From a virus (Duplodnaviria > Heunggongvirae > Uroviricota > Caudoviricetes): DNA of 54,688 nucleotides. Shown piece by piece: positions 27,148 through 27,654 of the stretch (position 1 is its first letter; every line of letters starts with the position of its first letter). Position numbers and translations under genes: made by a program. The stretch covers positions 1-54,688 of the IMG/VR virus record IMGVR_UViG_2541047774_000008, one strand, 5' to 3'. The notes beneath the pieces were generated by a model. That model made no database searches, was not told the origin of the DNA, and worked only from the letters and a program-made list of their open reading frames with translations.

Positions 27148-27654
27148 ATGAATTTAAGCGCAATGGTATACCCTGATACTTTCATAATTAATGGCGAATC
27201 ATTTAAAGGTAAAAGAAACGCAAAAGAAAACAAGGTATTAATTCCATATACAAATGAACCGGAAGTAACTATTGGTCAACACATTATCCAGTGTGTCGGT
27301 AAAAACGAGATAAATCTAAAAATTATAGATATGAAGTTGCTTCCCAATGGAACCCTCAGACAGGGAACCAACCATCCAAATATGTTGACGCTCTATATTG
27401 AAAATATCACGGGAAATGAACATATGACGCCACCTAAAAGTAATACATTTAACATTGGTTCAATTAGTGGTAATCAAGTGCAGATAGGTGAGCATAACCA
27501 TATGCTGGTAAACATCAGCATCACTGAACTGGTTGAAAAAGTCTCTAAATCGGGGGATGTACAAGCCAAATCAGTATTAAAGCAGTTACTGGAAAACAGT
27601 ACCGTTGCCAGCATTGTTGGGGCTGGCGCAAGTGCCTTAATAGGCTTACTGTAA
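27148..27654 (+). CDS. hypothetical cargo protein with C-terminal hydrophobic anchor (168 aa)
   Basis: Only sizeable plus-strand gene in the island; AT-rich; AAGGA RBS; C-terminal VASIVGAGASALIGLL; no recognisable family. Confidence 0.55.
   Translation: MNLSAMVYPDTFIINGESFKGKRNAKENKVLIPYTNEPEVTIGQHIIQCVGKNEINLKIIDMKLLPNGTLRQGTNHPNMLTLYIENITGNEHMTPPKSNTFNIGSISGNQVQIGEHNHMLVNISITELVEKVSKSGDVQAKSVLKQLLENSTVASIVGAGASALIGLL

Follow-up and report, generated by a model that had tools for sequence, protein, structure and literature searches.

Short beta motifs of the RHIM type are known from bacteria as BASS3, which occurs at protein termini in Bell/NLR (NOD-like receptor) gene pairs of filamentous Actinobacteria and Cyanobacteria (Dyrka et al. 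2020, bioRxiv 10.1101/2020.01.06.895854; PMC13506858), and a 2026 review places RHIM-like bacterial motifs in filamentous bacteria only (PMC13506858). A prophage defence island of E. coli ECOR25 carries Bab/Agp, an amyloid-controlled, membrane-acting abortive infection (Abi) system with the motif BASS11 (Ibarlosa et al., bioRxiv 10.1101/2024.11.07.622273). The adjacency of two genes with a common short beta motif is the defining criterion of such amyloid-signaling pairs (Dyrka et al. 2020; Ibarlosa et al.). Phage-inducible chromosomal islands of the capsid-forming kind (cf-PICIs) have variable regions before and after their packaging operon which, according to He et al. (bioRxiv 10.1101/2025.02.11.637232), are anticipated to code for immune systems. 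Here we describe a 168-residue open reading frame (ORF) from such a region of a cf-PICI in the IMG/VR virus record IMGVR_UViG_2541047774_000008, all 54,688 nucleotides of which were analyzed (the window; positions refer to it unless another locus is named). The family of this ORF is widespread, compact and modular, and is a good candidate for a single-gene anti-phage cell-killing switch.

Our favored reading, to which we give a probability of roughly 0.45, is that the ORF protein is a sensor-coupled, self-assembling, membrane-targeting effector that aborts or excludes competing phages; as parts of this reading we infer membrane insertion, oligomerization or amyloid formation, the trigger and the anti-phage phenotype. 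A first-pass annotation of this DNA had singled out the ORF and had missed its RHIM-like motif, its modular C-terminal part and the paired paralogue present in related islands.

The RHIM-like segment and the mobile C-terminal module

The ORF starts with ATG, and its product ends in ...VASIVGAGASALIGLL before the stop codon (...NSTVASIVGAGASALIGLL). It can be divided as follows.

27148-27654, plus strand: 168-residue cargo ORF, stop codon included (PHROG 5789; WP_001053661-like hypothetical protein)
27148-27423, plus strand: N-terminal small closed beta-barrel, residues 1-92, the family-specific, variable part
27448-27522, plus strand: RHIM-like N/Q/G-rich beta segment, residues 101-125 (FNIGSISGNQVQIGEHNHMLVNISI), from conservation, Pfam and a PDB profile search
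27523-27597, plus strand: two amphipathic helices, residues 126-150 (TELVEKVSKSGDVQAKSVLKQLLEN), with D137, A140, K141, L144 and N150 invariant
27598-27651, plus strand: glycine-zipper hydrophobic helix, residues 151-168 (STVASIVGAGASALIGLL), the protein's end

An exhaustive hidden Markov model (HMM) search of 1.84 billion representatives gave 248 matches to the ORF profile, and it revealed many proteins of 140-250 residues that match profile positions 90-168 only, at their C-termini. With local HMMs, both parts were found in 134 of 246 retrieved proteins and the module, that is the C-terminal 70 residues, was found alone in 93. The module is always the protein's end, stopping 0-8 residues from the C-terminus in 178 proteins. 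The domains that precede it are diverse: when 59 representatives whose N-termini are unrelated and 55 residues or longer are sorted, 21 or more N-domain classes result, with helical, winged-helix-like and zinc-ribbon domains and other barrels among them. No Pfam family was found on ten tested representatives with alternative N-domains, nor did six tested relatives with other N-domains match PADLOC-DB v2.0.0; a homologue search with the C-module alignment recovered short fragments only, and a related-locus search with alignment A1 recovered 12 loci. The 56 full modules on unrelated N-domains have the consensus NI......VQ.G..N.Q...I...ELV..I..S.D.EAKS.LK.LLEN.TVAS..GA..S.LL.LL. A constant C-terminal part joined to many exchanged N-terminal parts is the usual layout of sensor-effector proteins, and by analogy the family may be built on the same plan.

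Residues 101-125 are 48% N/Q/G/S and hold the core V111-Q112-I113-G114-E-H-N117 (VQIGxxN), which has the tetrad (I/V)-Q-(I/V/L)-G, with N three residues on, by which the RHIM/BASS3 motif is recognized. No variation is seen at I103, Q112, G114 and N117 among 36 homologues, and Q112, G114 and N117 are at least 90% conserved in the 56 modules on unrelated N-domains. The sole Pfam match of the ORF is RHIM (PF12721; E = 0.021, 14.8 bits, sub-threshold), which is also the commonest Pfam match among the homologues, with hits in 8 of 36 and a best E of 0.0039, none of them reaching the threshold. A motif-only profile of 27 columns, made from 32 diverse family members, was searched against 177,635 distinct PDB sequences. 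Significant matches were confined to two RIPK1 RHIM entries, 8ib0_A and 9m6m_A, both with E = 1e-3 over the stretch GIQIGNHNYM, and the next was a flagellin hairpin (E = 0.18). In sequence the family motif resembles RHIM, and the core Q-x-G-x-x-N coincides with the invariant positions of the family. We consider a truly amyloid-like assembly unlikely. In an AlphaFold model of the protein the predicted local distance difference test (pLDDT) is below 50 at residues 110-122 and averages about 52 over residues 101-110, between two better-predicted regions, as would be expected for a part that orders only upon assembly.

Residues 152-168 form the only hydrophobic stretch of the protein, with a mean Kyte-Doolittle value of 1.91 vs 0.6 for the best stretch elsewhere. 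This tail (TVASIVGAGASALIGLL) is Gly/Ala/Ser-rich and nearly invariant, and has the small-xxx-small register A154/G158/S162/G166. It has 17 residues and a summed Hessa-scale dG of about +1.4 kcal/mol, a value that makes it marginal for membrane insertion. We judge the odds that the protein acts at the membrane to be about even.

The barrel is modeled with confidence (pLDDT 82-92 over residues 1-92; mean 76 for the whole chain), and the alignment of 36 homologues gives P33, G43, G51, G73-T74-x-H76 and N86 as its conserved positions. The first-pass annotation had proposed a structure search. This was run with Foldseek against PDB and BFVD and returned nothing significant, that is, no clear match to a virion or housekeeping protein. 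A full-length profile found only CsrA among PDB sequences, and weakly (E = 0.14). We also considered that the barrel might be a diverged copy of the head-completion protein (HCP) of the resident prophage (15428-15763); this was rejected (hhalign probability 0.1%), and Pfam gave no Phage_HCP (PF05521) signal in the ORF protein. By any sequence test the ORF product is not a head-completion protein; we take its barrel for a generic small barrel with a possible likeness to neck proteins. Two relatives, P0123 (326 residues) and P0129 (334 residues), have the same barrel and a degenerate motif, with long unrelated C-terminal extensions in place of the module. One of the extensions looks like an acetyltransferase in sequence, and the two proteins may be either decayed fusions or alternative effectors.

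Homologues, the paired paralogue and the cargo slot

The ORF is a real gene under purifying selection rather than a frame that arose by chance. Homologues of 168-171 residues, 98 in number and 49-90% identical, came from a word-indexed search. In comparisons with homologues of other genera dS is saturated at a dN of 0.13-0.46; the comparison with a close E. coli allele gives a dN/dS of 0.34. The 51 copies among 5426 complete E. coli genomes each cover at least 80% of the ORF. The first-pass annotation had allowed for conservation only as a pseudogene, which is contradicted by the conserved length, by dN/dS and by the intact E. coli copies.

Other parts of that annotation can be compared with the present data. 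It had described the ORF as AT-rich relative to its neighbors, equipped with its own ribosome-binding site (RBS) and ending in a hydrophobic anchor. The GC content is indeed 0.373 (37.3%; 0.361 at third codon positions) vs 0.484 in the capsid gene, 0.524 in PerC and 0.496 in the remainder of the island (20338-35177); a Shine-Dalgarno sequence, AAGGA, precedes the start codon; and the hydrophobic stretch is the one given above. The claim that this is the only sizeable plus-strand ORF holds if the shadows of minus-strand genes are excluded, but antisense plus-strand ORFs reach 169 residues. Its placement between the capsid gene and PerC is accurate on the capsid side only, as a phrog_1957 gene intervenes before PerC. 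The absence of a recognizable family stands for Pfam (apart from the sub-threshold RHIM match), NCBIfam and PADLOC-DB v2.0.0, but not for PHROG, where the protein matches family 5789, which carries no functional annotation, over its full length (E = 3.5e-86).

The homologues of 168-171 residues are spread across Gammaproteobacteria and beyond, and are always accessory cargo. Divergent cf-PICIs from Serratia, Klebsiella, Enterobacter and a metagenome have a full-length homologue in the same slot, after the capsid gene and on the opposite strand, and these islands have different replication modules. At the ends of P2-like prophages a homologue follows ogr/gpD in Enterobacter and stands beside a HEPN RiboL-PSP-like gene and an S8 peptidase gene in Pseudomonas. 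A lambdoid phage has a distant homologue in the moron slot between Rz and the HNH/terminase genes. In Xanthomonas sacchari the homologue is one unit among small same-strand genes with attC-like repeats between them, and the gene immediately upstream encodes a DUF2971 protein that matches the PADLOC candidate PDC-S31 (E = 2e-23); homologues are thus next to defence-type genes in two cases. Further hosts are Shewanella, Sulfurimonas and Helicobacteraceae metagenome-assembled genomes and one metagenome-assembled genome of Kiritimatiellales. The recurrence of homologues in cf-PICI, P2-like, lambdoid and cassette-array slots makes the ORF an autonomous, horizontally mobile, single-gene cargo that moves between accessory slots of mobile elements. 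Literature searches found nothing on this family.

Some of these homes have features of their own. The integron-like array of X. sacchari (locus L009, 5000-16513) contains five 57-nt attC-like repeats (TCTAAC...GCCGCTTCGCGGCGCGGC...GTTAG), and a further repeat, of about 73 nt, stands on either side of the homologue in it (7859-7931 and 8516-8589). Around the Shewanella homologue a search for direct repeats gave none. The genome of Klebsiella phage P12620-1 (L004, PQ569648.1), of 106.5 kb and labeled "complete", has an end segment (about 95.5-106.5 kb) laid out like part of a cf-PICI, with capsid-, protease- and portal-sized ORFs followed by a cargo homologue and a replication-sized gene. All genes of this segment are annotated as hypothetical, so the cf-PICI reading of it rests on sizes and order; the layout suggests co-packaged satellite DNA or a chimeric assembly.

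In nine loci, one from Enterobacter soli and eight from Klebsiella/Enterobacter cf-PICIs, the slot holds two plus-strand genes 3-56 nt apart. These loci represent three distinct clusters of the target homologue. The downstream gene, B, is a full homologue of the ORF, and the upstream gene, A, encodes 246-255 residues.

L021 5135-5920; L031-L034 4204-4944; L035-L038 4230-4997; plus strand: upstream gene A, directly 5' of the ORF homologue

The product of gene A has an N-domain of the P0153/P0197 class, which is found on module-bearing proteins, and carries the motif FNIDTVNS[KR]Y[VA]QFGT[SN]N. It keeps the helical region, and a polar tail replaces the glycine-zipper helix. The P2-like prophage L013 has a 201-residue gene on the upstream side of its homologue; kinship of this gene with gene A was considered and rejected, since at 19% identity the two are unrelated.

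The features around the ORF in the window are as follows.

27137-27141, plus strand: Shine-Dalgarno sequence AAGGA, 6 nt 5' of the ATG (read from the sequence)
27087-27117, plus strand: possible weak promoter, TTTACA (27087-92), 19-nt spacer and TATTAT (27112-17), picked out by eye
27662-27681, both strands: bidirectional intrinsic terminator at which the cargo gene and the phrog_1957 gene converge (hairpin scan, folding)
27096-27690, no strand: variable cargo slot (alignment A3; flanks conserved also where the slot is empty or otherwise filled)
26862-27095, no strand: conserved intergenic region 5' of the capsid/packaging operon; its minus strand has a sigma-70-like site (27038-27011)
27691-27978, minus strand: small conserved island gene, phrog_1957 (ORF list, PHROG match)
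20338-35177, minus strand: host element, a cf-PICI-type satellite inserted in the prophage terL gene

The first-pass annotation had taken the locus for an accessory hotspot and had suggested comparing it across related islands. That comparison shows presence, absence and replacement of the cargo with a sharp junction, and we are highly confident that the ORF is cargo in a hotspot. In an alignment of four islands, the window island among them (A3), the sequences align identically from the capsid start to position 27095, diverge at the sharp left junction (27095/27096) and converge again near 27690. The slot holds the terminator hairpin alone in two of these islands, a 157-residue gene with terminator in one, and the ORF with terminator in the window; every slot variant closes with a terminator. 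By locus, the slot in the syntenic E. coli islands is empty in L003, L017 and L018, and has the 157-residue gene in L016, while L001 and L002 have the present gene. Of the 5426 complete E. coli genomes, 187 contain the slot flanks and 51 the ORF. An arrangement identical to that of the window is found in E. coli 042, with 99.1% identity over a 1.4-kb query of the ORF and its flanks. The alternative cargo (L016 1757-2230, E. coli 06-00048) encodes a 157-residue acidic protein, WP_001293446.1, which is unrelated to the ORF and has no Pfam or PADLOC match; its terminator is almost identical to that of the window.

The terminator hairpin is GC-rich with A-runs and T-runs on its sides, scores on both strands, and lies in a 61-nt stretch that folds with -17.1 kcal/mol (z = -3.7). 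A consensus scan called no plus-strand promoter and missed the TTTACA/TATTAT candidate because of its 19-nt spacer; the TTTACA of this candidate is in the conserved flank and its TATTAT is inside the cargo. In the four islands, whatever their cargo, the first 178 nt of region 26862-27095 are 100% identical and the rest is near-identical up to 27095; this is probably the control region of the packaging operon. The phrog_1957 gene was considered as a dedicated partner or antitoxin of the cargo, and was rejected because it persists in islands without the cargo.

The minus-strand genes of the island are, in order, an integrase, two AlpA-like helix-turn-helix genes, BRO-N, DUF4222, an AAA_25 replication protein, SSB and PerC, then the major capsid protein, prohead protease, portal, gp6-like connector, HNH, TerS and TerL; there are no tail genes and no lysis genes. 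A gap of 286 bp separates the ORF, upstream and on the opposite strand, from the capsid gene. The island splits terL of an HK97-like prophage into an N-terminal and a C-terminal piece, which flank it (19612-20337 and 35147-36340), and therefore inactivates a packaging gene of its carrier prophage. The same split is seen in E. coli 042, and in tcmA_3 the C-terminal piece at least is present. Direct att repeats of 16 nt or more were not found at the island flanks. Between connector and portal (window 23598-25323) the gp6-like connector is present and a Phage_HCP gene is absent in this E. coli island lineage, and both genes are present in cf-PICIs of Serratia, Klebsiella and Enterobacter (L012, L014, L031-L038). 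Loss of the HCP gene does not track the presence of the cargo, as L003 is without both.

Proposed mechanism and its alternatives

If the favored reading is right, the three parts of the protein would divide the work. The cytoplasmic barrel would confer specificity as the sensor, the 25-residue RHIM-like segment would be a homotypic self-assembly switch, and the helical hairpin with the glycine-zipper helix would be the membrane-targeting effector. In the uninfected cell the amphipathic helices would shield the hydrophobic tail and keep the protein inert. Upon infection the barrel would bind a trigger of phage origin, perhaps a ring-shaped component of the head or neck, and several copies would be concentrated, so that their RHIM-like segments could zipper into an ordered beta assembly. 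The clustered tails, freed from the amphipathic helices, would then insert in the inner membrane and permeabilize or depolarize it. The infection by the competing phage would be aborted, and the clonal host population and the island would be protected. In some satellites the tail-less upstream paralogue, which also has the motif, may serve as an additional sensor or as a regulator, co-assembling with the effector. That the gene takes part in conflict between phages or mobile elements has, in our judgment, about even odds. The strongest form of the reading, a RHIM-type functional-amyloid switch that kills the infected cell in unicellular Gammaproteobacteria (in phages, satellites and integron cassettes, on one polypeptide or on two adjacent paralogues), we regard as unlikely.

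Several observations weigh against the sensor-effector proposal. The ORF falls short of the RHIM gathering score (14.8 vs 20 bits). The reciprocal match to RIPK1 is to one RIPK1 variant only, other RIPK1/RIPK3 chains, human included, being absent from the motif-only PDB search up to E = 10, and the shortness of the motif limits any comparison with RHIM. The weak CsrA and flagellin matches show that such a segment can be an ordinary beta-hairpin, and the short, marginally hydrophobic tail could be a buried oligomerization helix instead. The motif is internal (101-125 of 168), unlike the terminal motif of known amyloid-signaling proteins, and the window has no second copy of it in six frames (the core was found once in 54.7 kb). 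No NACHT/NB-ARC or other NLR-type neighbor was found among the called genes in 38 loci, and no family member with any tested N-domain is a catalogued defence protein in PADLOC-DB v2.0.0. The adjacency of genes A and B could equally be that of a tandem paralogue which regulates its neighbor by ordinary hetero-oligomerization.

The same architecture could serve another purpose. The protein ends in a single C-terminal hydrophobic helix, and it could be a constitutive tail-anchored inner-membrane protein for superinfection exclusion or for the timing or release of lysis, with no regulated killing and no amyloid. The helix would then be a permanent anchor, the barrel would block DNA entry or modulate a helper holin or spanin, and the beta segment would be an oligomerization hairpin, for which the weak CsrA-like and flagellin-like matches would fit a normal hairpin. 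The position of the distant homologue directly after a lambdoid lysis cassette (holin, Rz) agrees with this, as do the moron positions at prophage ends that are typical of exclusion genes and the statement of He et al. (bioRxiv 10.1101/2025.02.11.637232) that cf-PICIs are without lysis genes of their own. On balance we find this account unlikely, because the tail is marginal for spontaneous insertion and because, with no signal peptide and nothing past the helix, the barrel would remain cytoplasmic, which fits sensing better than an injection block at the periplasmic face. The invariant polar residues D137, K141, N150, Q112 and N117 also suggest more than an anchor, a module found on at least 21 N-domains looks like a sensor-effector, and the gene occurs in integron-like cassettes far from lysis genes. 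A different role for the barrel would be that of a decoy that mimics a head-completion or stopper protein and caps or tethers the heads of helper or competitor, freeing tails for cf-PICI capsids; the C-terminal module would merely aggregate the trapped heads or anchor them at the membrane. The gene recurs beside the capsid gene in divergent cf-PICIs, and according to He et al. these islands steal tails, with the specificity for tails determined by their adaptor/connector proteins. A decoy of this kind would harm its carrier in the complete prophages that have homologues with the same barrel, which also occur in chromosomal cassette arrays, and relatives with helical or zinc-ribbon N-domains cannot mimic a neck; with neither a Phage_HCP signal in Pfam nor a profile match to the HCP of the resident prophage, we consider this role improbable.

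The RHIM-like motif, its carriage by phages and satellites and the existence of at least one amyloid-controlled Abi system in E. coli raise the thought of an anti-defence decoy, in which the motif would co-assemble with a host amyloid-signaling Abi protein of the Bab/Agp type and divert or block it, much as viral RHIM proteins poison host RHIM signaling. We hold this to be very improbable, since a conserved membrane-type tail and helices would be superfluous for a decoy, the key positions reported for BASS11 (IGSV-x-Q...DN) are out of register with the ORF motif, and the family is abundant in taxa without a known host amyloid-signaling system. To the view that the ORF is decaying, functionless or an annotation artefact we give next to no credence. 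The copies of Azomonas (L027) and Photorhabdus (L028) are disrupted, each split over two frames, and every database name is "hypothetical protein", but this view is effectively refuted by the conservation data: the length and identity kept across genera, the modest dN against saturated dS and the 51 E. coli copies. The ORF also has its own RBS and terminator.

If the sensor-effector reading is true, a very small, single-gene and highly modular anti-phage family would be present on satellites, prophages and integron cassettes, and RHIM-like amyloid signaling, known from filamentous bacteria, fungi and animals, would reach the mobile elements of enterobacteria. In the strongest form of the reading, the functional-amyloid switch, bacteria would have in this family a small and modular equivalent of HET-S and of necroptosis by RIPK/MLKL, and a new single-gene defence family with 21 or more variants of the sensor. 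It would also provide an easy E. coli system for the coupling of sensing to membrane killing through a motif, with 168 residues, clear point mutants, natural sensor swaps and A/B pairs. If it is not true, the identity of a recurrent cargo gene of the cf-PICI hotspot, where immune systems are expected, is still fixed.

Comparison with known systems

The E. coli proteins ElaB, YqjD and YgaM (DUF883) are C-tail-anchored glycine-zipper proteins; they end in basic residues, bind ribosomes and are encoded by chromosomal core genes. They are similar to the ORF protein in having a soluble cytoplasmic N-terminal part and, at the very C-terminus, one Gly/Ala-rich hydrophobic helix, but there is no homology between them and the RHIM-like segment is absent from the DUF883 proteins. 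Phage_HCP proteins (PF05521; SPP1 gp16-like fold) show no sequence or profile similarity to the ORF product, and Foldseek gives no support for a relation. Unlike their genes, the ORF is on the opposite strand, outside the morphogenesis operon, with its own terminator and variably present; its C-terminal module is in no neck protein; and the cf-PICIs L012, L014 and L031-L038 hold a true Phage_HCP gene in addition to the ORF homologue.

The variable regions of PICIs reportedly carry accessory immune cargo. The ORF is like the cargo considered by He et al. (bioRxiv 10.1101/2025.02.11.637232) in its slot directly 5' of the packaging operon, in its presence, absence or replacement among near-identical islands and in its odd base composition. 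It differs in that it matches no known defence family, and the gene is not described in the searched text of the preprint.

With RHIM, the fungal PP motif and BASS3 the ORF shares the core (I/V)-Q-(I/V/L)-G-x-x-N with N-x-G before it. Like these motifs in their association with HeLo/Bell, its segment stands beside a helical, putatively membrane-active part, in immunity-type contexts and, at some loci, with the motif in adjacent genes. It differs from them in being below the Pfam threshold, in lacking a NACHT/NB-ARC partner and a Bell domain, in its non-terminal motif and in the usually solitary gene. The hosts of BASS3 are filamentous, whereas the ORF family is in unicellular Gammaproteobacteria, Campylobacterota and others, and in their phages and satellites. 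HeLo, Hell, Bell and Bab domains are marked by an N-terminal pore-lining hydrophobic helix with a conserved "MEPIS"-region motif, set within a bundle of helices; in the ORF the hydrophobic helix is C-terminal and the N-terminus is a beta-barrel, and Pfam gives no match to these domains.

Bab/Agp has the same E. coli setting of mobile elements and defence islands, a short N/Q/G-rich beta motif in adjacent products (here in the Klebsiella/Enterobacter A/B pairs), a small helical part in which one hydrophobic helix is the proposed membrane-targeting element, and a sensor-plus-effector logic. No sequence relation to the ORF was seen, and BASS11 is set apart by its published description; in our own comparison its key positions do not align in register with the QxGxxN motif of the ORF, which is of the RHIM type. 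The order of the parts is also reversed, the hydrophobic helix of Bab being N-terminal and its motif C-terminal. The ORF has its putative sensor and effector on one chain of 168 residues, or has a paralogue of about 250 residues as its partner. By their own definitions the ORF belongs neither to Bab/Agp nor to the HET-S/Bell class, but these are the systems which, by analogy, we propose that it works most like.

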